Under the pieces are notes generated by a model, which was not told where the DNA came from, made no database searches, and worked only from the letters and a program-made list of their open reading frames with translations. A stretch of DNA of 64,000 bases from Candidatus Woykebacteria bacterium. GTDB lineage: Bacteria > Patescibacteriota > Microgenomatia > Woykebacterales > RBG-16-39-9b. Position numbers and translations under genes: made by a program. How positions within the stretch are numbered: the first letter of the stretch is position 1; each line of letters starts with the position of its first letter. Where the stretch lies: contig JBBDPM010000006.1 of the NCBI GenBank assembly GCA_040876345.1, positions 264,547-328,546 on the forward strand, in the 5' to 3' direction. Below are positions 24,801 to 44,979 of this stretch, piece by piece.

Positions 24801-25363
24801 CCGAACAAACGATTGGTATTGCTCTTTCTGCTTTCGATGAGCGTGGTCAGGGTAGCATTATTGTATTTGTAAATATCGGTTGGAATTTTATTGATCTTGA
24901 CCAAGAAACCCGAATAAAAAACCAGATAACCGAATACCTAACCGGTATCGACCATTTGAATATGAAAAACCTTAAAGCTGAAACCATAAGCATTGGCGAA
25001 AACAAAATTTCGCTGGACGATGAAGGTAATTTAAGAGTTGATGGAAATCTTGTTGCAAAGGGTGATGTAAAAATTGAGGGTAACTTAACTTTAGACGGAA
25101 GTTTTTCAGCTAAAGAGATCAAAACGGAAAAATTGGGCTTGGGTGAAAAATCAACTGGAACGGCAACTCTACGCAAAGGAGAAACAAGGGTTGAAATTGA
25201 AGCATCGGAAATATCCGAAAACTCGTTGGTTTTTATCACCCCAACCTCAAGAACTTATGATGTGCTAACAGTGATTGAGAAAAAGCCTGGGGAGGGCTTT
25301 GTCGTTGAAGATTACTTCCCCGCTGAAGAAGACATCCACTTCAACTGGTTCTTTGTAAATTAG
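21845..25363 (+). CDS. Giant membrane-anchored surface protein (1172 aa): cytoplasmic XerD/integrase SAM-like N-domain, single TM, S/T/G/D-rich ectodomain, conserved C-terminal module
   Basis: The N-terminus (PTVKNYLSDLRHLIAWINERY...LSSLRKFLSWAG) matches the phage-integrase N-terminal SAM-like core-binding fold. TM is HFSILGVFLLLLANLMFG. The C-terminal module (PIALNGRVPVFVTDENGSIEVGDRITSSSTPGVGMKV...IVFVNIGW, then ENKISLDDEGNLRVDGNLVAKGDVKIEGNLTLDG) is shared with the 1730-aa protein and with the c-subunit fusion protein. Confidence 0.8.
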   Translation: MEDNLPKVDLALGEIFSKYRDYLKSSGYSNPTVKNYLSDLRHLIAWINERYSGFSFVFLTLPSVRAYRSFVKEKFRSKPSISARRLSSLRKFLSWAGNLKYVPEDLVKATEYILSDKEAPTTLPQPQIIFQGPSTELKDETKTPPVPDKIHQKHHIKYTRPLWYQRYHEHPAHRVIHFSILGVFLLLLANLMFGQLIGDLLKRETAPDLGNVLAATPPRILSFQGRLTDENDVPVSTATNIVFRIWDDDLDSTEVDCDGGGDEDCMWKSKTWSVTPDQNGIFSVLLGDTSQSDTTIPASLFSDNASLWLGVKVESDSEMTPRQRIASSTYALNADALDGVDSVSFLRSDASDNYTSGTLTIDDGTTFAVNSTTIGIGNASSDAATINATSTFNTDVNLSLASTEDLVITNTNWAPASGIGLVDVNATSSTNDARGVDNYFDLNSTGSVTQYGYYGNFDATSVALADDTTSNYYGIYQTVSKTGTDTAATTATTTGTYGIRASASNTSGTNDAEITRKTYGGYFSAENNGTGNGQAYGIYSTVSGNDDSSESDFAYAGYFNGALNTTYNVGVASGTGCYINICDAVTSNPTDIAGQGFFGAGRLTAFSAKVDINHSFTTDSAIGLLVNTGTKTSGTVTNNYGIKVENQTYGSTDYGLYIAGAEDYAIYTAADDIKFVQAAADSLTIDAGTTDKTQDAISLDVDVNSTNVAGMFVDLDVGTALSSGEIADGLKVDVAGNASDNAAAAVNGLRLKGATASGAPVTGVNIETAFDVDIDLQNDEQILNTADDEIEFQCAPAGSCTASNDLRFDLDGTNPVIDSPTDTIIQINDTLMIDLAGNASDEAICGDNAEDDTTDVMVNDCTTGSTEDYAEFYSVEPNTTYGHIVSAGDEYITTTKHKLDPQTHTFVKLVKAQKGSNRTMIGIVSNNYSDFSVTGDRIKPEDNPFPIALNGRVPVFVTDENGSIEVGDRITSSSTPGVGMKVDDQTEQTIGIALSAFDERGQGSIIVFVNIGWNFIDLDQETRIKNQITEYLTGIDHLNMKNLKAETISIGENKISLDDEGNLRVDGNLVAKGDVKIEGNLTLDGSFSAKEIKTEKLGLGEKSTGTATLRKGETRVEIEASEISENSLVFITPTSRTYDVLTVIEKKPGEGFVVEDYFPAEEDIHFNWFFVN

Positions 25364-25367
25364 ACCT

Positions 25368-27779
25368 TTATCTACAATCAGTACCGTAGGCGCTCACCAT
25401 TGCCCCGATCTCTTGAACACCCACTATTCCATCCGGAGGTCCCCACTGCCAAGCACTCATACCCGCAAATTTTGATCTATCATAATTTATTGAGTAATTT
25501 GGTTGGCCCCATCTTGCCCCATAATGACTAACGATCAATCCTATGTCAGTGACCGCTATTACTGAGTCATGATCCGCGTCAAAGAAGTCCCATTTATTCA
25601 GGGGATCTCGTAATCCACCCAACCATTTGTTTGGCCCAAGCTCCTTGACATTTTTGCAACCATCACCATCGGCATCTTCCAAACCGTCATTTGTCCCATT
25701 CCCGTTACTGTCAGAAGCGTTTGGATTTGTTTTTAAAATAAATCTTTCTTGGTAGTCCCGCAACCCATCACTATCTTGATCCCCTTCTCCATCCAAAACT
25801 CCATTGTTGTCAGAGTCACTATCATGCGGGTCAGTTCCTAAAGTTAGTATTTCCTCGTGATCCAGCACTTTATCGCTGTCGCTATTGTGGCCAATAAAAA
25901 TGGACTTTGTGCCCTTTAGACCTACGTTATCGGTGACAGTCAATCTAATTTCCAAAAAGTGTAACTCGCTTCCTGAGTCCGCCGGTGCAATGAAATTTTT
26001 GTTTGTTCCTAAAGTTTGCAAATATGGATGGGTGTGACAACCCCCTCCAACCACGGGCTCGCAGTGGTGCAATAAAACGGTCCAGGAAAGGCCTGAGGCA
26101 ACCATTGGCCCGTTTTCTGGATCAAAGCCACTACCGTTTAGTGTCAATGTTTGTAAGTAATTGTAAGATAAACGAGCGGTTGGTGTGCCAATAAAAGCCT
26201 CGGGAGGAGCGTTTCCGACAATTATATTAATCACATCAGTATCGGTAGCACCATCGTTGTCAGTTACCGTTAGTTGAACATTATATGTCCCGTTTTGATT
26301 AAAAATGTGTTGTGGGTTTGCCTGGGAAGAAGAGCTGCCATCTCCAAAATCCCAATCATAAGAGACTATATTTCCATCAGAATCGTAACTGGTGTTATTA
26401 AAATCAACCGTCAGCGGTGAAAGCCCACCCTGAACGGACGATGAAGCTTGCGCGACTGGAGCCAAATTACCCTCAGGAGCAATAATATGCCGGATGTCCC
26501 CACTACTGTCAGTAAAAGCCTCCCACGTAATATAGTAAACATCTCCATCAGGACCAATTTTGAATGCTATTGGGGAGCCTTGATTCTGCAAAATAGTCTC
26601 CACACTTCCTTCAATAAGCTCGTTGTTTGCATCCAGTTTCAACACACCAATTTTTTTCTGGACCCAATCAGCAAAGAAAAAGGAATTCGAAAAAACTGAA
26701 GGGTAGTTTTCACCCTGATAAAACACCCCTCCTATAACGGCAGCCCCTTGACTTGGTGGCCTTTCGTAGCTGTAAACAGGATGAACAACTGCTGCCCCAG
26801 AGGCATAAAGTTCCTGGCACACTTGCATACTACTATTAGTTGGGTGTTGGCTCACCCCCTCATAACAAGGCCATCCGTAGTTGCCGCTAGCGGTAGCCAC
26901 ATCAATTTCTTCCCAATAAGTTGATCCAACGTTCCCAACAACCGGAAGATTCGTTCCTGGTTGAATTGTAAGACTGTGGGGATTGCGAAAGCCGTAAGCC
27001 CAAATTTTTGAGCGGTTGGCATTTGGATCTCCAGTAAAAAATGGGTTATCTGCTGGTCCTGTACCATCCGTATTAATTCTTAGAACCTTACCTGACAGAC
27101 TATCCAAATTTTGAACCCTTGCCAGTTTGTTCGGATCTAGGAAATTATCTGTACTGTCACCAATAGCCAAAAACAGTTTTCCATCTGGAGCAAATTCCAT
27201 GCCACCACCAGTGTGAAACGGATCATCATTTGGGATACAATCCGTGCCAGTGGGAAAATTGTTACACGATGGAGCGGCCGGTGTGCCTACTTGCGTTCCA
27301 AGTAAGACCACTTCGCTCCCAGGCACCGCTACATCACCGTTAGCTGTCACTCTGATAAGCCGCCCATTTTTTGGCCCCTGGGGATTAGCAGGATCATTCT
27401 CGTAAGTATAGTAGATATAAACATATCCATTTGTATCAAAATTTGGATCTAAAGCAAAATTTTCTAGGCCTCTTTCTATCGCGTTATTTACCGGAAGTTG
27501 GATGAATGGTGTTGGTAGTATTTGCCCATTTTTATGAACTAGTACCTTACCGTCAAGGGTAGCAATTAATATTCTACCGTCATTCGTAAACTCAAAATCT
27601 TTTGGTTGGCTTAGATCGTCCACGACAATTTCGCTGTAAAGCAAACCTTCTAGTTGGGCATGGGTGGGGGATGATGATTTAATAGAAACTACTAGAAGAC
27701 TGCACAAGAAAATGAAAAGAACCACGCTTAGTAATAACCTCTGGAGAAAATTTTTTCGCGCTTTAACTTTCATCATCAT
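25368..27779 (-). CDS. Secreted multidomain protein: glucose/sorbosone-dehydrogenase-like beta-propeller, PKD domain, thrombospondin type-3-like Ca-binding Asp-rich repeats
   Basis: Signal peptide. GSDH-like motifs (DPNFDTNGYVYIYYTYEND...GRLIRV). PKD domain (SPLTVDFNNTSYDSDGNIVSYDWDFGDGS...YNVQLTVTDNDGATD). D-x-D-x-D repeats (DSDSDNNGVLDGEGDQDSDGLRDY; DSNGNGTNDGLEDADGDGC). Confidence 0.7.
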   Translation of the reverse strand: MMMKVKARKNFLQRLLLSVVLFIFLCSLLVVSIKSSSPTHAQLEGLLYSEIVVDDLSQPKDFEFTNDGRILIATLDGKVLVHKNGQILPTPFIQLPVNNAIERGLENFALDPNFDTNGYVYIYYTYENDPANPQGPKNGRLIRVTANGDVAVPGSEVVLLGTQVGTPAAPSCNNFPTGTDCIPNDDPFHTGGGMEFAPDGKLFLAIGDSTDNFLDPNKLARVQNLDSLSGKVLRINTDGTGPADNPFFTGDPNANRSKIWAYGFRNPHSLTIQPGTNLPVVGNVGSTYWEEIDVATASGNYGWPCYEGVSQHPTNSSMQVCQELYASGAAVVHPVYSYERPPSQGAAVIGGVFYQGENYPSVFSNSFFFADWVQKKIGVLKLDANNELIEGSVETILQNQGSPIAFKIGPDGDVYYITWEAFTDSSGDIRHIIAPEGNLAPVAQASSSVQGGLSPLTVDFNNTSYDSDGNIVSYDWDFGDGSSSSQANPQHIFNQNGTYNVQLTVTDNDGATDTDVINIIVGNAPPEAFIGTPTARLSYNYLQTLTLNGSGFDPENGPMVASGLSWTVLLHHCEPVVGGGCHTHPYLQTLGTNKNFIAPADSGSELHFLEIRLTVTDNVGLKGTKSIFIGHNSDSDKVLDHEEILTLGTDPHDSDSDNNGVLDGEGDQDSDGLRDYQERFILKTNPNASDSNGNGTNDGLEDADGDGCKNVKELGPNKWLGGLRDPLNKWDFFDADHDSVIAVTDIGLIVSHYGARWGQPNYSINYDRSKFAGMSAWQWGPPDGIVGVQEIGAMVSAYGTDCR

Positions 27780-30868: not shown

Positions 30869-31473
30869 TGAGAGCTTTCTCCTCTTTAGCTTCAGTTTTG
30901 CTAGCTTTCATACTAGTTTCTCCAATATATGCTCAAGATGTGGACGTTGGTGGTACGGTGGATAAAGAAAACCCAACTGTCTTAATAACTAACCCGATCA
31001 ATGGATCAACCGTATCAGGAACTATAAATGTTACTGCAAACGCTTCGGATGATGTAGGGGTCTCTAAAGTAGAATTTTACGTCGATGGCGATTTAGTTGT
31101 TACCGACACAAGCGCACCTTATGGATTCGGTCTAGACACAAAAACCTTCTCTAACGGCTCTCACACGCTTCTGGCAAAGGTTTATGACACCGTTTCCAAA
31201 ACCGCTACTGATAGTGTTACTTTCAAGACAGCTAATAAAGTGACTCTTGAATCACCAACAAAACGGATACAAGAGCCAACCATCGGCCCGCCAAAGGTAG
31301 CCACGAAGTCAACTGGGGAGGGTAGAAAAACCACCTTAGTCCAAATACCGGAAGAGGAAAAGGAAGGAGGCCCGTCTAATAATCAACGGGATTTTATTTT
31401 AGGGCTTATCATTGGAGTTGAGATTTTTTCGGTCCTACTCTTAATTTATCTACTACGCAGAAGGAAAACTTAA
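30868..31473 (+). CDS. Surface protein with a bacterial Ig-like domain and C-terminal TM anchor
   Basis: Signal peptide. Ig-like segment VSKVEFYVDGDLVVTDTSAPYGFGLDTKTFSNGSHTLLAKVYD. C-terminal TM ILGLIIGVEIFSVLLLIYLL plus RRRKT. Start overlaps the stop of the previous gene. Confidence 0.6.
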   Translation: MRAFSSLASVLLAFILVSPIYAQDVDVGGTVDKENPTVLITNPINGSTVSGTINVTANASDDVGVSKVEFYVDGDLVVTDTSAPYGFGLDTKTFSNGSHTLLAKVYDTVSKTATDSVTFKTANKVTLESPTKRIQEPTIGPPKVATKSTGEGRKTTLVQIPEEEKEGGPSNNQRDFILGLIIGVEIFSVLLLIYLLRRRKT

Positions 31474-31745
31474 ATACCCAAGAAGATTTTGACTACGTTA
31501 TTGCTGACCTCTAGCACTCCATTTCTAAACTGATAATTAACCCCTTTGCCATCAACTGTTCTTACAATAATTCGGTCTTTGATAAGACTAATTAAATTGG
31601 CATGCTGGGGAAGAACATCAAACGGGCCTAAATCATTTTGGGTGGAGATAGATGAGGCTTTGCCTTTATAGTCCGGATCACGAGTAAAGGAATGCCAGAG
31701 AATTGAAACATCCAGTTCGTTTTTGGTCACTACTTCTTGGTTCAT
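31470..31745 (-). CDS. atpC: ATP synthase F1 epsilon subunit (short form, beta-sandwich domain only)
   Basis: Directly downstream of atpD. FDVLPQHANLISLIKDRIIVRT...NGVLEVSNNVVKIF resembles the epsilon N-terminal domain (ILPGHAPL..). The C-terminal helical hairpin is absent. Confidence 0.65.
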   Translation of the reverse strand: MNQEVVTKNELDVSILWHSFTRDPDYKGKASSISTQNDLGPFDVLPQHANLISLIKDRIIVRTVDGKGVNYQFRNGVLEVSNNVVKIFLGI

Positions 31746-31752
31746 AAAATCC

Positions 31753-34006
<2,254 letters not shown>

Positions 34007-34010
34007 AATT

Positions 34011-35498
34011 TCAAACTACTGTGTTTTGGATTCTTGAATATAGAATTTGCTCAATTTTCTCTCGGTTTGCTCCTAGATAGTTTTCTAGAGCCTCAACATC
34101 TTCAAACTTTTGCAAATCTGCCACAACACTTTCAAAGGCACATTTCGCAAAGGCCTCGACGAGTTTTGTCCTCTCAACCCGCACTTGCTCAATATTTTTA
34201 CTAGACCAATAATCTGAAAATGCGAGGCCAACAAGTATAAGTGCAACATCTTTCGGTATCACGGTGTATGTCTCTTGATCAAATATAGCCTCGAGTCGCT
34301 CTCCAATATTTAAGTCCGATCTTGTTTTGAGTGGAAGATCAAAGCCAAAATGTGAAAGCTCCTGGGCTTTGCGATAAAGGTTGAGTTTTTCAACAAGAGC
34401 TCTTCTTATTTTTTGCTCTAGCATATTTTGGGTTTGATTGCCAACTCTTGTTACTGAAAGAGAGGTATTTACCGCGGGCCTTCTTCCCTTTTTAAATTCT
34501 GCCTCGTCAAAGAAAATATGACCGTCCGTCATAGCCATAGAATTTGTTGGTAAGTAACCGGTTAAGTCGCCTTGGACTGTTTCAACTACTGGCAAGGCTG
34601 TGATACTGACTGAACCACTCCCGTATTTGATCCTACCGGCTCTCTCAAGAATTTTTGCGTGGATGTGAAAAATGTCGCCCGGGTAACTCTCCCTGGCTGG
34701 CATCTTTTTAGAAAGTAGAGAAATTTCCCGGTAAAATTTTGCGTGGTTTGTAAGGTCATCCAAAACAATTAGTACATCTTTCCCCAAATCTCGAAAATAC
34801 TCCGCTAAAGTAAAGGCGGAGTAAGGCGCAAGATAAACGAGGGATGCGGGATCAGCTGACGACGCAAATACAATAACACAGTTTCCCAAAATCCCAGTTT
34901 TCTGAAGATAATCCTCAATACTTTTAATATCCGATTTTTTCTTTCCAATTCCAACATAGATACAAATAGTACCTTTTTTTGCCTGGTTGTAAATTGTCTG
35001 GAGCAAAAAAGTGGTCCTTCCAGTTTTTTGATCCCCAAGAATAAGCTCCCTTTGACCCTTGCCTAAGGGAATCATATAGTCAACTATTGCTACACCAGTC
35101 TCAAGCTGTTCTGAAATTTTAACCCTTTCCTGAATCCCTGGCGCTTTATTGAATACAGGCCTAGACTCTTTCTCCCCCATTGCTGGACCAAGGCCGTCTT
35201 GGGTATTCATAAGGGGTCCAACAACCCTACCTAACAAATTTTGTGATACCTGGATCTTCATATTCTCTCCGGTTCTTGCAACTCTTTCCCCTATTACGGG
35301 TAGATCGCTCTCCAAAAGAATTACCTCTACAAGTTCTGGGTCGATAGATTGAACAATACCTTTCTTTCCAGTCTCAGTTATTACTACCTCAGAAAGCTTA
35401 GCCTTAGGCAGACCGGAAAGATAAATGACTGTATTTAAAACACTCTCCACTCTACCGATTTCTTGAGTTTCCCTTAAGTAGTCGTCGAAGGTTTTCAT
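34011..35498 (-). CDS. atpA: ATP synthase F1 alpha subunit
   Basis: Walker A ELILGDQKTGRTTFLLQTI. 495 aa. Confidence 0.95.
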   Translation of the reverse strand: MKTFDDYLRETQEIGRVESVLNTVIYLSGLPKAKLSEVVITETGKKGIVQSIDPELVEVILLESDLPVIGERVARTGENMKIQVSQNLLGRVVGPLMNTQDGLGPAMGEKESRPVFNKAPGIQERVKISEQLETGVAIVDYMIPLGKGQRELILGDQKTGRTTFLLQTIYNQAKKGTICIYVGIGKKKSDIKSIEDYLQKTGILGNCVIVFASSADPASLVYLAPYSAFTLAEYFRDLGKDVLIVLDDLTNHAKFYREISLLSKKMPARESYPGDIFHIHAKILERAGRIKYGSGSVSITALPVVETVQGDLTGYLPTNSMAMTDGHIFFDEAEFKKGRRPAVNTSLSVTRVGNQTQNMLEQKIRRALVEKLNLYRKAQELSHFGFDLPLKTRSDLNIGERLEAIFDQETYTVIPKDVALILVGLAFSDYWSSKNIEQVRVERTKLVEAFAKCAFESVVADLQKFEDVEALENYLGANREKIEQILYSRIQNTVV

Positions 35499-35950
35499 GA
35501 AAAAGCCCCCTTAACTTTCTCTTTTACAACTTGGTCCAGTATTGAAGCGTAAGAATAATCTCGGAAATTTCCCATAAACTCGATGGTTGCACCCGCCAAT
35601 AAGTCTCTCTTTACCGTAATTTCCAGTACTAAGTGATCACTCCTCCCTACATTTAGTAGTCGGGATATCTTCCTAATAAATTCTTCGTTTGGCTCAAAAG
35701 CAAATTCAAGCCGAGCCTTTGGTAATTTGACGAGAAAGTCTTTTAAGTTTTTCAGCTTTTTAGCTAAATCTTCTTCGGGTGGTTCCCTGTTACCCTCAAT
35801 CCCAAGCTCCTTTAAAACTTCGGGAACGCCTGGATTTACCTCTGCAAGGTTCGTCCTTGCAGATTCACCTATCTTCGCTATTTGGTAAAGCAAATCATTG
35901 AGCTCCTTTGTTGTATATATTTTTGCTATAACTTCTCTCGAGAGTTGCAT
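35495..35950 (-). CDS. atpH: ATP synthase delta (OSCP) subunit, short
   Basis: Operon position and a delta-like C-terminal pattern (LLAGATIEFMGNFRDYSYASIL). 151 aa. Confidence 0.65.
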   Translation of the reverse strand: MQLSREVIAKIYTTKELNDLLYQIAKIGESARTNLAEVNPGVPEVLKELGIEGNREPPEEDLAKKLKNLKDFLVKLPKARLEFAFEPNEEFIRKISRLLNVGRSDHLVLEITVKRDLLAGATIEFMGNFRDYSYASILDQVVKEKVKGAFS

Positions 35951-35952
35951 GC

Positions 35953-36627
35953 CTACAAAAACCTTTCATTTTTGGCGCGCTCGAGTGCCTTAAGTACAAG
36001 CTCTTCGTGTTTACCTGTATCAACCGATTGCTCAATAGTTTCTCTAGCAACATCAGAAACCACCAGGAATATCTTCTGATCAAGATCATTTTTCACCTTT
36101 TCTTTATAAGAGGAGAGTTCTTGGTTGACCTTACCTCTCTCCTCGATAGTGGCCTTGATAAGCTCCTCTCGCAGCCTGCCAATCTCAAGCTGGATGGAAG
36201 ACTTGGCACCGGCCACTACTTTACCAAACTCAGAGTTTTGAACTTGGGCTAAATTCTCAAATTCTTTTTTATAAGATTCTGTGATAGTATTTATTATATT
36301 TTGAAATACTTCAGAATCTTTTGATATAGTATCCCTAACTAACGCCTCTGCTTTGGCGTTTAATTCTTGCCTCATTTGCTCCCCCACATCCTCTACACTC
36401 TTGAGTTCTTCTAGGGTCTCTTCCACCGTATCTTTAGATTCCTCAAGCGCTTCGCTCAAGACCTTTTTCTCTTTGCCGACAACTCTATTTCGAAGTTTCA
36501 ATATCCTTCTTAGAAATGGTGTTAAATCGGCTAAATTGCGTTGAGTTTGATATAAACTAAAAAGGAGCAATAAAACAATGAGATTTAGGAAAATTGATCC
36601 TATTAATAGTATTTGTAAGGTGTCCAT
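35953..36627 (-). CDS. atpF: ATP synthase Fo b subunit (long, 224 aa)
   Basis: Single N-terminal TM LLIGSIFLNLIVLLLLFSLY followed by a long charged coiled coil. Position upstream of atpH. Confidence 0.7.
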   Translation of the reverse strand: MDTLQILLIGSIFLNLIVLLLLFSLYQTQRNLADLTPFLRRILKLRNRVVGKEKKVLSEALEESKDTVEETLEELKSVEDVGEQMRQELNAKAEALVRDTISKDSEVFQNIINTITESYKKEFENLAQVQNSEFGKVVAGAKSSIQLEIGRLREELIKATIEERGKVNQELSSYKEKVKNDLDQKIFLVVSDVARETIEQSVDTGKHEELVLKALERAKNERFL

Positions 36628-36628
36628 A

Positions 36629-37459
36629 TTATCTGCCTAAGAAAATTAACAATAAAGAAAGCCCTACTCCGGCTGCTGTGAATATTAAAACTGTTAATAA
36701 ATTCAAAAACATGCTACCTTGGATAGTCCCCTTTGCCAGTGGGTTTCTGCCAATTGCAACTATTCCAGTCCTAACTGCCCGAGCTGCTGAAATGAATCCC
36801 AGACCAAATGATATAATTATTAAAATTAGGGCGAACAAGTATCTAAGCAAAAGTTGAAAGTTGTTAGGCTCTTGAAGACTTGTTGAGGTAAAAGCAACTA
36901 GCTTTTGCCAAAGGTCATCGGCATTTTGTCCCCCCAGTTGAGTTTGATAATGAATATTAATTTGCACAGATATATTACCCACCCCACTGCCAGAATACGA
37001 TGCTAACGCCTTACCGAGAACCACACCAGCTTGTGTGGCCTTTTGACCAACACCAGGATCTTTTGAAGCAGTGATAAAATCGCCCAGTGAAATGTTACCG
37101 TTTACCGTTGATACTTTTACGAGCGCCTCACCCTCTGAAACTATAGCTTTTGACTTGTCTGTTTTTTTGTTGAGTTCAATGGCCGGGTTTTCAACAACTA
37201 CTCCAAAAACATTTTGATCGTAGGCAACTACTGCGCGGACCAGATTATCATCCTCTGTAATTGAGACTATATCTCCCGCCTGCGCTTCGCTGTCAGAAAC
37301 CTCAAGATTTGTGGCAATCTGCGTCCCCAAAAACTCTTGAGCAAAACTACTGCGCGGGAATATAAAACCAAAGACCGCCATTATCAACATTAAACCCAGT
37401 AAGGTTCGAGTGTACATAGGCTTAGAAACTAGTGACCAGAGACCAGGGGAAGTTATCAT
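36629..37459 (-). CDS. Fusion protein: signal/TM + extracellular domain (homologous to the giant-protein C-terminal module) + C-terminal Fo c-subunit-like helical hairpin lacking the ion-binding carboxylate
   Basis: The C-terminal 75 aa (GLGFISAARAVRTGIVAIGRNPLAKGTIQGSMFLNLLTVLIFTAAGVGLSLLLIFLGR) align to c-subunits (ARQPE loop becomes GRNPL; ...IYLGR end becomes IFLGR), but the conserved TM2 Glu/Asp position is Leu. Residues ~40-200 (IVSEGEALVKVSTVNGNISLGDFITASKDPGVGQKATQAGVVLGKALASYSGSGVGNISVQI) match the giant proteins' C-terminal module. It sits in the atpE position directly upstream of atpF, and no atpB lies between it and the next gene. Confidence 0.6.
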   Translation of the reverse strand: MITSPGLWSLVSKPMYTRTLLGLMLIMAVFGFIFPRSSFAQEFLGTQIATNLEVSDSEAQAGDIVSITEDDNLVRAVVAYDQNVFGVVVENPAIELNKKTDKSKAIVSEGEALVKVSTVNGNISLGDFITASKDPGVGQKATQAGVVLGKALASYSGSGVGNISVQINIHYQTQLGGQNADDLWQKLVAFTSTSLQEPNNFQLLLRYLFALILIIISFGLGFISAARAVRTGIVAIGRNPLAKGTIQGSMFLNLLTVLIFTAAGVGLSLLLIFLGR

Positions 37460-37540: not shown

Positions 37541-40500
37541 TTGACAAATCTTCCAGGAAATTTCATAATTTTAGGTAGAGTTTCCCGTGACGGGAAAGCC
37601 TACCTCCCGTGGGAAACCAAGTTCCAATCTCTGCCAATGGAACCGACTAAATTAGAGGGCCAAACATTACTGCCATACTCTGAAATCATTACCCTTGCTA
37701 AGAAGGTGGGTGTTGATTTTGGTAAAGGCTATCCCTACAATAGGCTCCGCTACTACACCAAAATCGGTCTTTTACCCCGCGCGCAAAGAAAATCTTTTGG
37801 TGCATCACCTGAAGGGTGTTACCCCTCTTGGGTTGTCGATAAGTTAGTTGATGTAGACCGAAAGCTAAAAAGTGGCGCAACAATCCAAGCAATTCTCCGG
37901 GAAGAAAGTGATCCAAAGACTAACCCTGTAACAAACCTTGAACCAATAACTTTAACTCCGGCTTACGGAGTTTACCCAAACCTCCTTGCCCAATCCGAAA
38001 TCGATCATAGATCGTCGATAGTCGATAGTCGAACTTCGAACATCGACCATCCAACATCCTGGTTTCCCTTCTTGGGTAAAACCCTCGCCTACTCTACTTT
38101 ATTATTAATAATACTAGGTGCGTCCCTAGTGAGCGCTTACTTTTGGCCACCGACTCATCAAGGGTTGAGAAATATAGCTGCCAATTTAGGCACGAAAGAT
38201 TCAATTTCCCGTGACGGGAAAGATATTTCCCGCTCCGCCAACCTCCTAAGTGACAAAGTTGGATCGGTACTTGGCCGGGCCACTTCCCCATTCCTTAAGA
38301 TAAATGTTGAAACTGAGATGGATAAACTCCTGTCCGCAAACGGCGGCATTGTAACTAATGGTGCAGATGTTAACCTCGGAGATGGTCAATTAACCGCTTC
38401 GAATGTTATTTACGATATTGTAGCTGGTGAAAATGTGACTGTGGGTACTGGTCAAACTCCAACTATCTCTGTACCAGACATTACCGCTGGAATTGGATCT
38501 GTAAGTGGAACAGCCGGAAGAATCACATCCACTGGAGGTGATAACCCTGCTATAAATATTGCTAGCAACTACGCGGGTCAGACTTCCATCAATACTTTAG
38601 GTACTATCACAACTGGCAATTGGAATGGATCAGTAATATCCGATGCCTTCATCAACAATAACCTAACGATATCTTCTTCCGGCAGTGTTGCCTGGTCAGC
38701 GCTAAATAGCTACCCTGCTTCTTGTGGAGCCGGTGAATTCGTTCGAGCAGTCGGCGACGCTCTTACTTGTGTTGCCGAGTCTGGTGGTGTCCCAACAACC
38801 AGAACTTTAACAGCCGGGGCTGGTCTGAGTGGTGGTGGCGATCTTTCGGCGGATAGAACTTTTGATGTTGGTGCGGGTAATGGAATTACGGTAAATGCTA
38901 ACGACGTAGAAGTCAACGCGAACGCGGCCGATTTTGAATTTGTGGCCGGGGTTTTAAATATTGCCGCTGGTGCAATTGAAGATGATGAGGTGGATGATGA
39001 TATAACTATTAGTTCATCTGGCAGTGTTGACTGGAGTGCGCTAACGGGTTACCCTGCAGATTGTTCTGCTGGATCTGCCCTAACCGGGTTTAATGACGCA
39101 AACCCCGACACCTTTGATTGCGATGCGGATTTTGTGGAAAGCAACGTCGCGGAAACTATTACCGGTGGTTGGGTCTTTAATACCAACCCAACAACATTCG
39201 ATACTGATGCCACTTTTAACGCTGGTATAATTGCTAGTGCGCTTTCGGGAGCAGCCGGTACTGCCTTGTGTATTGATGGGACCGATAACATAGTTACTTG
39301 TAATGCAGGTTCCTCTTCCGCTACCCTGCAAAGTGCCTATGACGCTGGTAATTCTATCACCACAGCCGATGCAGATGGCAGCATACTCTTTAACTTGGCT
39401 GACACTGCTGCCGATCAAGATTTCATTGTTGATATTTTAGGAACCGGGAATACTTTTGAAGTTCGGGATAATAACTCCCCTATTCTTTCAGTGGCCGACG
39501 GCGGAACAGTCGGCATCACCGGTACCTTGGACGTTTCTGGCCACGGTGCTTTTGGAGGAGGCGGAAGCGTTTTAAGCTCTCGAATTCTTAATGTAAGTGA
39601 AACTTTCACAACAGGTGGTGCTAGAGGGCTGGTAGTTAATCCTACGTTTAACCCAAGCGCCTTAACCACCGTTCGTTCCTTCGATAACACACCTACATTT
39701 GGCCCAACTGGAGCAAGTACTATTACAATGGTGGGCGATTACGTCAAAAGTACTGTCGGTGGTTCCAATACAGGTGCTGGAACGAGTCTTTACAACTCCT
39801 ACATTGACTCGCCAACAATTGGAGGCACAACAGTTGTCAACAATTATGGCCTTTATATGGCTGATCAAAGTGGTGCCACAAACAATTACGCACTATACCA
39901 AACCGGAACAAGCGCCACCAACATATTGAACGCCAACACCAGAATTGGCTCTACTACTATCCCTGCAGCGACTTTAGATATAGCTGGGACTTTGCTCGCT
40001 GATTCTGATGTTACTCTCAGTCATTCTGGAACAGAAAATTTGGAAATTATATCTACTAGTTCAACTGATATGATTAACCTTGCTATATACGCACACGCAT
40101 CCGCCCTGGCTGGTGCCAAGACTGGGATTCTAATCTCCAATGCTGGGGGAGGATTTCCTGAAGGTCTTGACATAGGACTTAATGTCACAAATGTAAATGG
40201 TCTTGATATGCCAGACGGTATATTAATCGACTCATCTTCTGGAACTTATACAGATGCCATTGATGTTTCAGATTCTGACATTGTGAATGCCCTGAACGTA
40301 GGTAGTAACGTAATTTTAGGAACCACACCAACAATTGATTTCACTAATTTTGATGTTTCTAGCGGTGGGCAGCTTACATTTACTGGCGTCTCAACGGATA
40401 TTACTACGGGGGCAAACGAAGATTTAACTCTTTCACCAAACGGTACTGGTGACATTATATTGTCCACTGATGGAGATACTTCGGCAATTCTATCTTCCTT

Positions 40501-42733
40501 CGCTAATAACAATGGGGTTGTTTACACTAACGGTTCTGGGGTGCTAGCTCAAACAGCTACTGGTGGGGCGGGAACGCTTTGTCTAACATCTGCTAGTGGT
40601 GCCGCGCCGCTTTGGAGTGCTTGCTCTGGTTCGGCCGCTACAGCCTGGTCCTCATTAACAGCCCCTAGTGGAAGCCTCTCAATTGCTCATGCGGCTAATA
40701 CAACCAGCTTCACATTCAATTCTGTAACCAGTGGAACAGCCTGGACCCAAAGCTCTACTTCTTTAACCACCGGGATACTTAACCAAGAATCCTTCACTTC
40801 AGCACTTGCTGCAACCGGAACTACTACTGGTTTAAGAATTAGCCCTACAATCGCGGGTACTGCTGCAGCTAACACTTACACTATCAACGCTCTAGACCTA
40901 GCTGCTATAGCGGGGTCTTGTCCAGCCACTGCTACCTGCCGAAACAACGCCATGAACATTGGATCTTACGCCATCGCCGATGCTGACCAAACTTCAGTTG
41001 CCATAAATATCGCGGATCAATACAACGCCACGGGCACCCACTACGGGATCTGTTTTGATTGTGATGGGACTTATAGTAATGCGCAGGCAGCAAATGGTAT
41101 CAACTGGGGTAATGATGCCAATAGTGTCGATCTTTATCGATCTGATTTAAATACTTTGAAAACTGATGACACCTTTGAAGCTAGTCCAATACTAACAGAC
41201 ACCTCTGGAGTGAAATGGGGAGGTATATTAAATGCTGATATACGACCCACAGCTGATTCCTCCGGGACATTTAGTGGCGTCATAGGTCAAGCTCAAATAT
41301 TGATTGGTACAACAGTTGATTTAACCGCAGATGTGTCCGGGGTGAAAGGTTCCATAAGACCTGTGTTTAGCACCACGAGTGGATCGGTAACTTGGGCTAA
41401 GGGAGTGGCCGGCGTTTTTGACGGTGCGGCCAATGTGAGCATAAACTTCACCAATTTTGCAAACTTTCACGCAAAGGATCCTACACTTGGAGGCGCTACA
41501 ATTACTAATAGCTACGGTCTTTATCTCGAGCCTCAAACTCAAGCTACGAATAATTACGGCATTTGTTTTGATTGTGACGGTACTTTCGGTACTCAAACAG
41601 TCGGTACAGGAATCCGCTGGGGTACAGATGCTACCACTGCAAATAATGTTCAGCTTTACCGAAGTGCTGATGGAACTGCCCTACTTGAGCTTGGCGACGG
41701 AACTGATTTAATTTCAGCAGCCGCAGCTACTTTCTCGCTCAATTTGGACAACACCACCTCAAGGACAGAACGGCTTTGTCACGGTGGCGGAGACGCCGGA
41801 ACCGGAATTGCCGCCATATCGGATTGCTCAGGAACCCCAGGAGATTACGCTGAAGAGTATGGTACTGCTGATTCTTCCATCGAAGCTGGTGATTTAGTTG
41901 CGGTCGATTCTAACCGCCAGGCTCAAGGTGTAGTTAATGACGGTCAACTAGGTTCAAAAGCTTGGGTGTTGAAGTCGAAAGAATCCTACGAGCCAAGCTT
42001 AATCGGAGTTGTTTCCACAAATCCAAATGAAGTGATTGGTAAGAATTTTAACTCAAGTGAAAATCCGAGGCCAGTAGCTTTAAATGGTAGAGTTCCTCTT
42101 AAAGTTTCTTCTGGGAACGGCTCTATCGCTCCAGGCGACCCATTAACAAGTTCGTCTACCCCAGGAGTGGCTATGAAAGCCACAAAGAGCGGGGCGATTG
42201 TTGGAAAAGCCTTACAGTCCTACGATGGATCCGGTGTTGGTAAGATAATTGCCTTTGTCTCTGTGGGGTGGTATGTAGAACCAATACAGACAAATGGCGA
42301 GGGGCAAGTAACAAGTTTAGAGGGCTCACTTATTAACTCACTAACTATCAACTCGATACAAATTGGTGAGAACAAACTAGGTTTGGACAACCAAGGAGAC
42401 CTGCGATTAGATGGAAACTTAGTGGTGGCTGGGGATATTAATATTAGTGGAGATCTTGCCTTAACCGGTGATTTAGTTGCTTCAAGCGTTAAGACAGATG
42501 AACTCAAGATAAGCGATAAGACCTCGGGATCTGGAGAGATACTGGCTGGCAAATCCTTTGTCGCTATAGAAAATGTGAAATTAACCAAAGACTCAAAAGT
42601 TGTAACAACCTTTACTTCTGATTGGGCAGGGGCAACACGCTACTGGATTACTAAAGAAGATGGGAAGTTTGAGGTTCACACGGACCAATCCGTAACCTCT
42701 AATGCTAGCTTTGATTGGATCATAATAAATTAA
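37541..42733 (+). CDS. Giant membrane-anchored surface protein (1730 aa): cytoplasmic MerR-like HTH N-domain, single TM, huge ectodomain, conserved C-terminal module
   Basis: N-terminal LPYSEIITLAKKVGVDFGKGYPYNRLRYYTKIGLLPRAQRK...SWVVDKLVDVDRKLKSGATIQAI matches the MerR-family HTH plus wing. TM is LAYSTLLLIILGASLVSAYFW. The C-terminal module (PVALNGRVPLKVSSGNGSIAPGDPLTSSSTPGVAMKATKSGAIVGKALQSYDGSGVGKIIAFVSVGW ... ENKLGLDNQGDLRLDGNLVVAGD) is shared with the 1172-aa protein. Confidence 0.8.
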   Translation: MTNLPGNFIILGRVSRDGKAYLPWETKFQSLPMEPTKLEGQTLLPYSEIITLAKKVGVDFGKGYPYNRLRYYTKIGLLPRAQRKSFGASPEGCYPSWVVDKLVDVDRKLKSGATIQAILREESDPKTNPVTNLEPITLTPAYGVYPNLLAQSEIDHRSSIVDSRTSNIDHPTSWFPFLGKTLAYSTLLLIILGASLVSAYFWPPTHQGLRNIAANLGTKDSISRDGKDISRSANLLSDKVGSVLGRATSPFLKINVETEMDKLLSANGGIVTNGADVNLGDGQLTASNVIYDIVAGENVTVGTGQTPTISVPDITAGIGSVSGTAGRITSTGGDNPAINIASNYAGQTSINTLGTITTGNWNGSVISDAFINNNLTISSSGSVAWSALNSYPASCGAGEFVRAVGDALTCVAESGGVPTTRTLTAGAGLSGGGDLSADRTFDVGAGNGITVNANDVEVNANAADFEFVAGVLNIAAGAIEDDEVDDDITISSSGSVDWSALTGYPADCSAGSALTGFNDANPDTFDCDADFVESNVAETITGGWVFNTNPTTFDTDATFNAGIIASALSGAAGTALCIDGTDNIVTCNAGSSSATLQSAYDAGNSITTADADGSILFNLADTAADQDFIVDILGTGNTFEVRDNNSPILSVADGGTVGITGTLDVSGHGAFGGGGSVLSSRILNVSETFTTGGARGLVVNPTFNPSALTTVRSFDNTPTFGPTGASTITMVGDYVKSTVGGSNTGAGTSLYNSYIDSPTIGGTTVVNNYGLYMADQSGATNNYALYQTGTSATNILNANTRIGSTTIPAATLDIAGTLLADSDVTLSHSGTENLEIISTSSTDMINLAIYAHASALAGAKTGILISNAGGGFPEGLDIGLNVTNVNGLDMPDGILIDSSSGTYTDAIDVSDSDIVNALNVGSNVILGTTPTIDFTNFDVSSGGQLTFTGVSTDITTGANEDLTLSPNGTGDIILSTDGDTSAILSSFANNNGVVYTNGSGVLAQTATGGAGTLCLTSASGAAPLWSACSGSAATAWSSLTAPSGSLSIAHAANTTSFTFNSVTSGTAWTQSSTSLTTGILNQESFTSALAATGTTTGLRISPTIAGTAAANTYTINALDLAAIAGSCPATATCRNNAMNIGSYAIADADQTSVAINIADQYNATGTHYGICFDCDGTYSNAQAANGINWGNDANSVDLYRSDLNTLKTDDTFEASPILTDTSGVKWGGILNADIRPTADSSGTFSGVIGQAQILIGTTVDLTADVSGVKGSIRPVFSTTSGSVTWAKGVAGVFDGAANVSINFTNFANFHAKDPTLGGATITNSYGLYLEPQTQATNNYGICFDCDGTFGTQTVGTGIRWGTDATTANNVQLYRSADGTALLELGDGTDLISAAAATFSLNLDNTTSRTERLCHGGGDAGTGIAAISDCSGTPGDYAEEYGTADSSIEAGDLVAVDSNRQAQGVVNDGQLGSKAWVLKSKESYEPSLIGVVSTNPNEVIGKNFNSSENPRPVALNGRVPLKVSSGNGSIAPGDPLTSSSTPGVAMKATKSGAIVGKALQSYDGSGVGKIIAFVSVGWYVEPIQTNGEGQVTSLEGSLINSLTINSIQIGENKLGLDNQGDLRLDGNLVVAGDINISGDLALTGDLVASSVKTDELKISDKTSGSGEILAGKSFVAIENVKLTKDSKVVTTFTSDWAGATRYWITKEDGKFEVHTDQSVTSNASFDWIIIN

Positions 42734-42786: not shown

Positions 42787-44979
42787 ATGAGAGAACAATA
42801 TTCTAGAATCATTAGTCAAATAATAAACTTTGGAATAATCGCTATAATTTTTATCGTTCCTCTTCTTTTTATTCCCCTACCCCAAAACGCGAATGACGCG
42901 AGAGTTTTTACTGAGTTTAACAAGGGTTTGCTTTTTATTTTTGGATCTCTGGCCCTTTTTAGTCTCTGGACCTTTAAGATGGTTCTGGAAAAAAAAGTAA
43001 CGATAATTCGCACCCCAATCGACATACCCCTGATAGCATTTCTTTTGATTTACGCCCTTTCTACAATCTTCAGTATCGATCCTTTTGTGTCGGTTGCTGG
43101 CTATTACGGCATTTTTCACCCCTCGCTACTTGGTGTTTTTGCCCTTGTCTTATTTTACTTTACAGCAGTCTCCAATTTAAACCGGAGAACTAGAGCTTTG
43201 GCTCTTTGGTCTATGGTAGCTTCAATTGTACTGCTATCAATTATAAATATTTTTAATTTCTTTGGGCTACACACGATCCCCTACAAAATCGCCCAAACCC
43301 GCGATTGGATACCAATTTTGAGCCTGGGAACTTTATCCTTCATTAATGCCTTGGTAATACCAGTGAGCGTTGGGCTCGCGCTTTCCAGTAAAATTTTGTG
43401 GCAGAGGGTTTTAGGCTTTGGCTTTGCGATAATCCTTCTTATCCCTATTCTAATAATTAATGTACTCGGCGCCTGGTTAGCACTAATTGCCGCCCTTGCC
43501 ACCTTTCTTATATTCGCCCCTAACGTTCTTCAAGACAAGGAAACCCGTCTACATATTTTAATTGCTTCTGGTATTGCTATCATATTAGCGATAATATTTT
43601 TAACTCCCGCCCTTTCTGATAACATAGTTAAACCTTTAATAAATGGGGAGAACAAATCTAAAAACTTACAAGCGGAGCCCGCACTTTCCTTAGACAGCGG
43701 CTGGAAAATAGCTGCAAATGCAGCTAGCAAAAGGCCTTTTCTTGGCTCTGGCCCAGCAACATTTCCTTTTGTTTTTACCCGCTACTCGCCTCTCTCTCTA
43801 AACCAAACCCAAAATTGGAATGTTCGCTTTGAGCAAGCTTCAAACGAATATATTAATCTAATCTCGACAGTAGGTTTCGCGGGGCTTGCTCTTTTCTTAA
43901 TTATTTTATTCTTAATATTACGTCCACTTTTTCAATTTGTTTCGAAAAGTTCAACGATAAGGGAAAATCCCCTGCTTCTATTACTTCTATCTTCCCTCTC
44001 GGGATTTGTAGTTGGGAGTTTATTTTTCGACACGAGCCTAATAATAGGTATATTTCTAATGCTTCTTGCGGTGTCAATATTCGGAGCTCTCTTTGATTTT
44101 GGTGCTAAAGGGGTAGAAAAAATCAACTTAAAGCTCGTATCCCTAAATTCAGGTGCCATAAAAACTTTTTCTGATGAAAAGGAAGGAACCAACAATACAC
44201 TTGGTTTTGCCCTTTTAATACCTTCGACAGTTGTCATGGCACTATTAGCATATTTTGGTACCCAAGCTTATCGCGCCGAGGTTTTTTATCAAAAAGCTCT
44301 TCAAAAAGCCTCTGAAAATAAGGGGCTTGAGACTCGGGATCTTTTGGAAAAAGCAACTAATACTTTTCCCCACCGAGATATTTATCACCGAACTTTATCT
44401 ATAGTAGACCTTAAACTTGCTGTTAATCTAAGTTCTCAAGAAGCGAATGAGCAAAACAAAAAAAACTTAGAAACATTATTATCCCAAGCTGTTTCCGAAG
44501 GTAAAATAGCAAGCGGATATCAAACGCCTCGTACTTGGGGTACAAGCAGTGAAAACGTGGTTAACTGGGAGTCTTTATCCACAGTTTATACGAGTCTTGT
44601 CGGTTCAGTAAAAGGTGCGGATGATAATACTATTCGAACCTATTCCATGGCTATAGAAAAATTCCCCAGAAATCCTCTATTTTATGAAGCTTTAGCAGGT
44701 GTGTACTTAAAAATAAATCAAACCGAAAATGCGATCAGGGCTGCCGAAAGGGCCGTAACTCTAAAACCCGATCTTGCCTCCCCCCATTATACACTGGCTC
44801 AAGCTTACAGAAAAAAAGAGGACCGCGGGCAAGACGCTGCAATCCAACTACAAGTTGCCTTAAACTTATTACCCGAAGGTTCTGATAAAGATAGAGTAAA
44901 ATCCGAACTTGAAGAACTAAAAAAGGGCCTGAAAACCAAACCATCTGAAACAACCTCTTCAGCGAAACCAAATCCTTGA
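42787..44979 (+). CDS. O-antigen ligase/polymerase-like (Wzy_C) integral membrane protein with C-terminal TPR repeats; possible pilin/surface glycosyltransferase
   Basis: At least 10 TM helices with a Wzy_C-like core. The C-terminal soluble region holds TPR-like repeats (YEALAGVYLKINQTENAIRAAERAVTLKPDLASPHYTLAQAY). Confidence 0.7.
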   Translation: MREQYSRIISQIINFGIIAIIFIVPLLFIPLPQNANDARVFTEFNKGLLFIFGSLALFSLWTFKMVLEKKVTIIRTPIDIPLIAFLLIYALSTIFSIDPFVSVAGYYGIFHPSLLGVFALVLFYFTAVSNLNRRTRALALWSMVASIVLLSIINIFNFFGLHTIPYKIAQTRDWIPILSLGTLSFINALVIPVSVGLALSSKILWQRVLGFGFAIILLIPILIINVLGAWLALIAALATFLIFAPNVLQDKETRLHILIASGIAIILAIIFLTPALSDNIVKPLINGENKSKNLQAEPALSLDSGWKIAANAASKRPFLGSGPATFPFVFTRYSPLSLNQTQNWNVRFEQASNEYINLISTVGFAGLALFLIILFLILRPLFQFVSKSSTIRENPLLLLLLSSLSGFVVGSLFFDTSLIIGIFLMLLAVSIFGALFDFGAKGVEKINLKLVSLNSGAIKTFSDEKEGTNNTLGFALLIPSTVVMALLAYFGTQAYRAEVFYQKALQKASENKGLETRDLLEKATNTFPHRDIYHRTLSIVDLKLAVNLSSQEANEQNKKNLETLLSQAVSEGKIASGYQTPRTWGTSSENVVNWESLSTVYTSLVGSVKGADDNTIRTYSMAIEKFPRNPLFYEALAGVYLKINQTENAIRAAERAVTLKPDLASPHYTLAQAYRKKEDRGQDAAIQLQVALNLLPEGSDKDRVKSELEELKKGLKTKPSETTSSAKPNP

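Follow-up and report, generated by a model that had tools for sequence, protein, structure and literature searches.

A phi29 gp12-like beta-tulip domain shared by a c-subunit-like fusion protein and two giant surface proteins of a Candidatus Woykebacteria bacterium

A 64,000-nucleotide (nt) stretch of a Candidatus Woykebacteria genome (assembly GCA_040876345.1, contig JBBDPM010000006.1, positions 264,547 to 328,546 of the forward strand; hereafter the window) encodes three proteins that share one segment. The first is a 276-amino-acid (aa) protein at the head of an F-type ATPase operon, in which the segment is fused to a two-helix hairpin resembling ATP synthase subunit c (the fusion). The other two are giant surface proteins of 1730 and 1172 aa (giant1730 and giant1172). 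The shared segment, termed the module, is one ancient globular domain, a tandem beta-tulip "autochaperone" of the type found in domain D4 of phage phi29 gp12 (MEROPS G2-like). Sequence comparison suggests that its presence in all three proteins is a matter of common ancestry of a widespread domain, and not of a locus-specific or demonstrated physical link. The novel part is the fusion of this module to a c-like hairpin without an ion-binding carboxylate, heading an ATPase operon without an a subunit, in many ultra-small bacteria of the Candidate Phyla Radiation (CPR). No description of a CPR c-subunit fusion, of a carboxylate-less c or of such a-less operons was found in the searchable literature. 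The explanation as a whole, which takes jointly the identity of the module, the processing of the giants and the reading of the fusion and its ATPase, is given a probability of about 0.6.

Similarity among the three proteins

In pairwise BLASTP comparisons, residues 54-163 of the fusion align with residues 1442-1569 of giant1730 (35% identity, E=2e-17) and residues 73-172 with residues 909-1014 of giant1172 (33% identity, E=1e-8), while the entire C-terminal 336 aa of the two giants align with each other (33% identity, E=9e-47). An earlier sequence-only reading of the window had proposed a three-way similarity at these places, and these values, far above chance, bear it out. Its limits for the fusion (residues 60-200) do not hold: the aligned part is approximately residues 45-172, and the nt range given for it, 36860-37340, corresponds to residues 41-200. 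The module was also rightly placed in the C-terminal region of the giants, but it is not their last domain, as ~145-150 aa come after it. The proposed motif NG..I..GD.ITSS..PGVG.KA is confirmed by the conservation of G121, G126, D127, S132 and G136, which are invariant or near-invariant among 119 members of the fusion family. All conservation counts for this family use these 119 sequences, from a search that returned 412 clusters, 120 of them listed.

That the similarity results from chance or from a compositionally biased repeat can be practically dismissed. The giants are G-, S- and T-rich and repetitive outside the module, but the E-values between the fusion and the giants already refute this explanation, as does the composition entropy of the module segments (3.8-4.05 bits), which are not low-complexity. 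Moreover, the AlphaFold 2 (AF2) model of the fusion module is a compact beta domain with a predicted local distance difference test score (pLDDT) of ~98, so that the ubiquitous low-complexity repeat named beforehand as a possible refutation does not apply. The search for further copies suggested at the same time, made with a hidden Markov model in all six frames, finds exactly three in the window. Recent local duplication was considered as their source and rejected: the fusion module is 41-61% identical to the fusion modules of distant CPR bacteria and 32-36% identical to those of the adjacent giants.

Searched exhaustively with the profile, 1.84 billion representative proteins yield at least 34,840 with the module at E<=1e-3 and 27,133 at E<=1e-10. 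The best-scoring of them are 500-5,766 aa long and often contain 2-3 copies, usually placed a few hundred residues short of the C-terminus. A separate search with the giant C-terminus listed only proteins of at most 579 aa, which, given the far longer proteins of the exhaustive search, is apparently a property of that search. Smaller relatives outside the CPR come from records named Caldilineaceae, Anaerolineae, Bryobacteraceae and Arachidicoccus, some of them with the module at the extreme C-terminus. In the alignment from which the module profile was built (A3; 44 sequences, of which 31 are fibre-type and 13 fusion-type modules), mean identity is 46% among the fusion-type modules, 39% among the fibre-type modules and 30% between the two groups. 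Because the fusion-type modules group apart in this way, and because the window fusion remains 41-61% identical to the fusions of other CPR lineages, the fusion is old.

Fold and family of the module

The module has the tandem beta-tulip fold of the C-terminal fragment of gp12, a fold that it appears to have in common with trimeric phage capsid decoration and cement proteins, and its fold matches in BFVD bear the name "preneck appendage protein". When the A3 profile is compared with PDB sequences, it matches gp12 residues 691-768 (E=0.007-0.008) and the base of the phi29 head fibre gp8.5 (E=0.02-0.04), and beyond these two it has no match of useful E-value in the entire PDB sequence set. In published work, gp12 D4 is described as consisting of two beta-tulip domains with a decoration-protein fold, and as a C-terminal autochaperone that drives trimerisation of the tail spike (bioRxiv 10.1101/216911). 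The earlier suggestion of an oligomerisation domain is therefore supported, by the autochaperone fold, by the weak but specific sequence match and by the matches to trimeric decoration proteins.

Direct scans of the three proteins against Pfam, NCBIfam and PHROG were also tried as a means of naming the module, and gave only sub-threshold matches that are insufficient alone. The minor capsid protein family PF23982 (XM1_gp53) matches the module at 19.2 bits, below the Pfam cut-off of 27; further ones are K1-lyase_C, downstream of the module in giant1172, phrog_6427, of unknown function, and the NCBIfam subunit C model treated below. PF11962 (Peptidase_G2) has no match in any window protein in the Pfam scan, while one homologue (P0166) has a borderline match spanning the D-x-A-E motif discussed below (24.7 bits, with the cut-off at 25). 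Within the superfamily of gp12 D4, Peptidase_G2 and the beta-tulip decoration proteins, the module forms a new branch that stays below the thresholds.

Among the closest known systems are the trimeric beta-tulip proteins that decorate or cement capsids, namely the capsid stabilisation protein of HFTV1, Sf11 gp40, XM1 gp53 (PF23982), TW1, Pam3 cement and the N-terminal base of phi29 gp8.5, together with the lambda gpD class. Decoration proteins bind HK97-fold capsids at three-fold axes, whereas the window module has no capsid context: the genes examined near the three modules include none for a capsid or terminase, and the neighbourhood is one of ATPase-subunit and cellular envelope genes. The fusion module differs further, in being covalently joined to a transmembrane hairpin.

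It had also been suggested that the module might be a cell-wall-binding unit common to the surface proteins, and a wall- or glycan-binding role is very unlikely. All three copies are extracellular (by a signal peptide in the fusion and a single N-in transmembrane (TM) helix in each giant), in agreement with such a role, and some relatives join the module to lectin or depolymerase domains (H_lectin, Phage_depo_C, K1-lyase_C). These, however, are domains separate from the module, which itself has no structural or profile match to LysM, SH3b, PGRP, CBM or SLH-type folds or to any other wall-binding fold, and all of its strong matches are trimerisation and decoration domains.

The self-cleavage motif

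The self-cleavage site of gp12 lies between S691 and D692. This position was taken from the released crystallised fragment 3gqh, which begins exactly at D692, and from virion models in which mature gp12* ends at residue 691 (PMC6542822). In the HMMER alignment, the gp12 sequence S691-D692-F-A-E695-Y-F falls at the start of the module profile, and at the cleavage position the giants have G-D1435-Y-A-E-E-Y (giant1730) and E-D868-Y-A-E-F-Y (giant1172). A D-[hydrophobic]-[A/S]-E motif stands at the module edge in 91 of 106 homologues of the giant C-terminus, the remainder being mostly N-terminally truncated fragments. In the A3 alignment, the D and the E are present in all 31 fibre-type modules and in none of the 13 fusion-type modules. 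The fusion has Q47-I-A-T50 instead, and across its family position 47 is D or E in 3/119 sequences and position 50 (T, S, K or R) in 0/119. Both positions sit six residues past a conserved signal-peptidase-type site.

Because D-x-A-E is retained and aligns with the gp12 site, the module of the giants most likely trimerises the fibre and then cuts the chain. On the gp12 precedent, it would nucleate trimerisation of the upstream fibre, and cleavage before D1435 and D868 would most likely follow, releasing the module together with the neck and beta-sandwich that come after it. In the fusion, where both acidic residues are lost, the free N-terminus of the module would be made by signal peptidase. 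The giants are thus predicted to process themselves still, and the fusion copy to be a permanent domain.

Several differences from gp12 D4 (a pre-neck appendage or tail spike domain; MEROPS G2; PF11962, "IMC autoproteolytic cleavage domain") accompany the common fold. No window protein passes the PF11962 threshold, and the acidic D-x-x-E pair at the domain edge is found in the giants but not in the fusion. The giants carry ~145 residues after the module and their relatives several copies of it. The window proteins are cellular and membrane-anchored, whereas gp12 is part of a virion, and the fusion copy is N-terminal and joined to a membrane hairpin instead of a fibre.

A cysteine lies 2-8 residues upstream of D-x-A-E in many fibre-type modules (CSGTPGDYAE, DCTTGSTEDYAE, CNQDVAE, CIDLAE and others; unquantified), including both window giants. 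It recalls the C-terminal cysteine annulus discussed for the P22 tail spike (PMC3357383).

The fusion protein and its ATPase operon

The fusion comprises a signal peptide, the module, a partly helical linker and the c-like hairpin (Table 1). The hydrophobic stretch of its N-terminus spans residues 15-41, and the signal-peptidase-type site is conserved across the family, with A, S or G at A40 in 114/119 sequences and Q at Q41 in 96/119. Its start codon is uncertain (window 37415..37459, minus strand): the frame has 276 aa from M1, the NCBI annotation has 250 aa from M27 ("hypothetical protein", Candidatus Woykebacteria), and a start at M15 gives a normal signal peptide and 262 aa, a typical length for the family, whose members have 244-282 aa. 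The 120 entries listed in the family search are 228-282 aa long and have source names of Woyke-, Curtiss- and Nealsonbacteria, and all those that are named are "hypothetical". The taxonomic range of the fusion rests on these source names; a search for related loci with a narrow alignment (A5) found only 5, three of them from Woykebacteria or a close relative.

The hairpin has the helical-hairpin form and the conserved R-(Q/N)-P loop of subunit c. The R-N-P loop, by which canonical c subunits touch the gamma/epsilon stalk, is invariant in the family, and helix 1 is glycine-rich. To our knowledge, all characterised c subunits carry an essential membrane Asp or Glu. No such residue occurs at positions 205-230 and 245-274 in 119/119 fusion homologues, and L258, which aligns with the ion-binding Glu62 of Spirulina c (2wie), is hydrophobic across the family. 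PF00137 (ATP-synt_C) matches neither the fusion nor the hairpin scanned alone, and the NCBIfam model of subunit C gives 15.7 bits (E=0.017) against a cut-off of 128. The label "c-subunit" that the fusion had been given therefore stands for its c-like hairpin but not for the defining carboxylate, and because this carboxylate was looked for and is lacking, the fusion cannot be counted as a genuine c subunit. It plausibly works like a c-type rotor or anchor. It also differs from AtpE in its additional ~135-aa extracellular domain and signal peptide, and in that its operon lacks the partner subunit a. A membrane Asn in an L-N-L context occurs both in the TM helix of the b-like protein (FLNLIV, 36590..36610) and in helix 2 of the hairpin (FLNLL, 36695..36703), and may be a polar contact or chance; N253 of helix 2 is conserved in 113/119.

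The operon order fusion-b-delta-alpha-gamma-beta-short epsilon is kept in 12/12 loci (the window and 11 others, numbered with the prefix L). In all 12, the fusion is directly upstream of the b-like gene, with no a gene adjoining the operon. The area searched for an a or canonical c gene was the 64-kb window and up to ~10 kb on each side of the operons. The six loci with gene calls contain no Pfam ATP-synt_A or ATP-synt_C gene, a scan for the a-subunit Arg motif gave no match in the window or the first loci retrieved, and phmmer found no homologue of E. coli a, c or AtpI among all open reading frames (ORFs) of the window and L001-L006. F1 itself is intact, with the Walker A and GERxREG (GER(I)REG) motifs kept in beta, and unusually divergent: identity to the E. 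coli subunits is 43% for beta and 38% for alpha, and BLAST against E. coli detects none of gamma, delta, epsilon and b. Epsilon has just 91 aa (the beta-sandwich only) and delta just 151 aa.

Because the hairpin lacks the carboxylate and the operon lacks an a subunit, the complex can be read, at the level of the operon, as a probable F1-like ATPase that has a stalk and whose c-like membrane part would not translocate protons. The fusion would oligomerise, with its R-N-P loops binding gamma and epsilon and its modules forming an extracellular oligomerising cap, and the energy of ATP hydrolysis would not be spent on canonical proton pumping. An ordinary F1Fo enzyme, in which the 276-aa protein is a c subunit with an N-terminal extension, a is encoded elsewhere and ions bind through, for example, N253, is quite unlikely. 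It would account for the atpE position of the fusion before atpF, the conserved loop and glycine-rich helix 1, the presence of b, delta, alpha, gamma, beta and epsilon, and the intact beta motifs. It is contradicted by the complete absence of membrane Asp and Glu, with a hydrophobic residue in place of Glu62, and by the lack of an a subunit adjoining the operon in any of the 12 loci, as well as of an a-type Arg motif or E. coli a homologue in the sets scanned for them.

The nearest functional analogues of the non-proton-binding complex proposed here are the F1-like X0 ATPases (Type 2, the gliding motor; Type 3, MIB-MIP-coupled) of mycoplasmas, which also carry a canonical F1Fo operon. The likeness, at the operon level only, is that of a divergent alpha/beta/gamma/epsilon cluster without a or canonical c and with novel membrane partners. 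The Mycoplasma X0 ATPase is functionally tied to, and required for, a surface protein system, and one of its membrane components, MMCAP2_0577, has a signal peptide, extracellular globular domains and two C-terminal TM helices, which is the topology of the fusion (PMC12994834). The likeness of the fusion to MMCAP2_0577 is one of layout, and the CPR operon differs in keeping b- and delta-like stalk subunits and in having no 12-TM protein.

Genomic link between the operon and the giant genes

A gene with a giant1730-type N-terminus adjoins the fusion in the window, L001, L002, L004, L005, L008, L009 and L010, and lies ~4 kb away in L003. These are 9/9 assessable loci, the remaining three having less than 700 bp upstream, and they span genomes of the Woyke-, Curtiss- and Nealsonbacteria types. 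The neighbour is transcribed divergently, and its N-terminal 100-450 residues match giant1730. Its shared N-terminus contains the MerR-like motif GVDFGKG.P.NRLRYYTKIGLLP, followed by one TM helix.

Co-conservation of the fusion and giant genes, proposed earlier as a check, holds at the level of the gene but not of the module. L002 and L004 have as neighbour a conserved ~720-aa orthologue without the module (58% identity to each other), and no module-bearing gene lies within the available flanks of L002-L006. Neighbours carry the module in the window and its close relative L001 only, and in L001 both flanking giants do so. The operon and the fibre gene are probably linked functionally or regulatorily, and the shared module does not define this link. 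The membrane-anchored helix-turn-helix protein divergent from the operon may be a regulator, a partner or both.

These data bear on a docking model in which the fusion module binds those of the giants, for example in mixed beta-tulip trimers, so that the fibres would be attached to, and perhaps moved by, a c-like ring. Such docking is unlikely. It would agree with the recurrent giant1730-type neighbour, with the two module-bearing giants of L001 and with a fold family built for trimer interfaces (10.1101/216911), and it has a precedent in the Mycoplasma F1-like X0 ATPase, which co-purifies with the surface MIB-MIP system and is needed for it (PMC12994834). Against it stand the module-less neighbour of L002 and L004 and the lack of module-bearing genes in the flanks of L002-L006, the separate grouping of fusion- and fibre-type modules at ~30% identity, and the occurrence of the module in tens of thousands of unrelated fibre proteins. 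In addition, self-cleavage of the giants would detach the module from the anchored fibre.

A membrane protein with Wzy_C (O-antigen-ligase-like) and TPR domains recurs near the operon (window 42787..44979, plus strand; L001 486-2618; L002 17890-19674; L004 15379-17079). Its gene adjoins the giant in the window and L001, and lies on the other side of the operon, past a response-regulator/histidine-kinase pair, in L002 and L004.

Weight of the evidence

The preferred explanation is that of an ancient gp12-type domain that processes itself in the giants and is permanent in the fusion of an F1-like ATPase, and several points count against it. The Pfam and NCBIfam thresholds of Peptidase_G2, XM1_gp53 and ATP-synt_C are reached by no window protein, and the sequence likeness to gp12 is weak (E ~0.007) and confined to the first half of the module. 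Because ~145 aa follow the module in the giants and relatives hold 2-3 copies, it may be a permanent structural node and not a released chaperone. An a or canonical c gene may lie elsewhere in the genome. On geometric reasoning, a trimer-forming domain of ~14 kDa per protomer would be hard to pack over a normal c-ring. Finally, cleavage, trimerisation and ring formation are predictions.

The giant surface proteins and other features of the window

The coordinates of the main features are collected in Table 1. The architecture of the giants suggests that they are N-terminally membrane-anchored, tail-spike-like fibres.

Table 1. Coordinates of the fusion, its operon, the giants and the giant1730-type neighbours (window coordinates unless a locus is named).
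Feature	Position	Strand	Details
Fusion protein ORF	36629..37459	-	276 aa; likely start M15, nt 37415-37417
Signal peptide of the fusion	37340..37459	-	residues 1-40; cleavage-type motif (V/A)-F-A followed by Q-E
Fusion module, gp12-D4-like tandem beta-tulip, extracellular	36935..37339	-	residues 41-175; Q47-I-A-T50
Linker, partly helical	36848..36934	-	residues 176-204; helix 180-196 in AF2 model
c-subunit-like two-helix hairpin	36632..36847	-	residues 205-276; R238-N239-P240 loop nt 36740-36748
Remainder of operon	31470..36627	-	b-like 35953-36627; delta-like 35495-35950; alpha 34011-35498; gamma 33143-34006; beta 31753-33141; short epsilon 31470-31745
giant1730	37541..42733	+	1730 aa; MerR-like N-domain, one TM (~179-206), long fibre, module, neck, C-terminal beta-sandwich
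giant1730 module	41834..42295	+	residues 1432-1585; D1435-Y-A-E1438 at nt 41843-41854, N-terminal edge
giant1172	21845..25363	+	1172 aa; Phage_int_SAM-like N-domain, one TM (~171-202), fibre, module, neck, beta-sandwich
giant1172 module	24431..24904	+	residues 863-1020; D868-Y-A-E871 at nt 24446-24457
Cys region upstream of motif	41816..41842 and 24419..24445	+	window giants
giant1730-type neighbour, window	37541..38900	+	
giant1730-type neighbour, L001	7920-9800		
giant1730-type neighbour, L002	6505-8670		
giant1730-type neighbour, L003	1827-2126		
giant1730-type neighbour, L004	4241-6430		
giant1730-type neighbour, L005	1198-2043		
giant1730-type neighbour, L008	252-1520		
giant1730-type neighbour, L009	3950-5332		
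giant1730-type neighbour, L010	727-1794		

At the start of giant1172 (21845..22360, plus strand), a Phage_int_SAM_1-type domain (E=6e-7, over the Pfam cut-off) is followed by one TM helix. With it, the giant extracellular fibres carry cytoplasmic nucleic-acid-binding-like domains of two kinds. The part of the giants after the module (42296..42730 and 24905..25360, plus strand) consists of a neck of short beta repeats (GDLRLDGNLVVAGDINISGDL...) and then a ~70-aa beta-sandwich (pLDDT ~95), with a weak K1-lyase_C match in giant1172. Together, the neck and beta-sandwich look like the distal end of a phage depolymerase tail spike. Right after giant1172, on the minus strand, an 803-aa protein (25368..27779) combines a glucose/sorbosone dehydrogenase beta-propeller (E=9e-46) with PKD domains, and is probably secreted or at the surface.

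Implications

A very large unannotated family, consisting mostly of giant CPR surface fibres, is now placed with the gp12 autochaperone and the beta-tulip fold. This placement suggests a mechanism for their maturation, namely self-cleavage between x and D in x-D-x-A-E.

What use CPR bacteria make of an "ATP synthase", in the absence of an electron-transport chain, has yet to be settled (PMC9166423). The fusion is c-like yet unable to bind protons in the known way, and its operon is a-less across CPR lineages. Should this enzyme work uncoupled from a proton gradient, it would be wrong for these lineages to treat it in metabolic reconstructions as an ATP synthase or gradient generator. It is conceivable, at rather long odds, that what is annotated as an "F-type ATP synthase" operon in much of the CPR (Patescibacteria) encodes an ATP-driven rotary or mechanical device and not a proton-coupled synthase. 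Its carboxylate-less, a-less c-like ring would carry an extracellular phage-derived beta-tulip crown that docks to, assembles or actuates the divergent neighbour fibre, a CPR counterpart of the Mycoplasma X0 ATPase built from a domesticated tail-spike chaperone. After that of the mycoplasmas, this may be the second case in which an F1 motor has been rewired to a cell-surface system.
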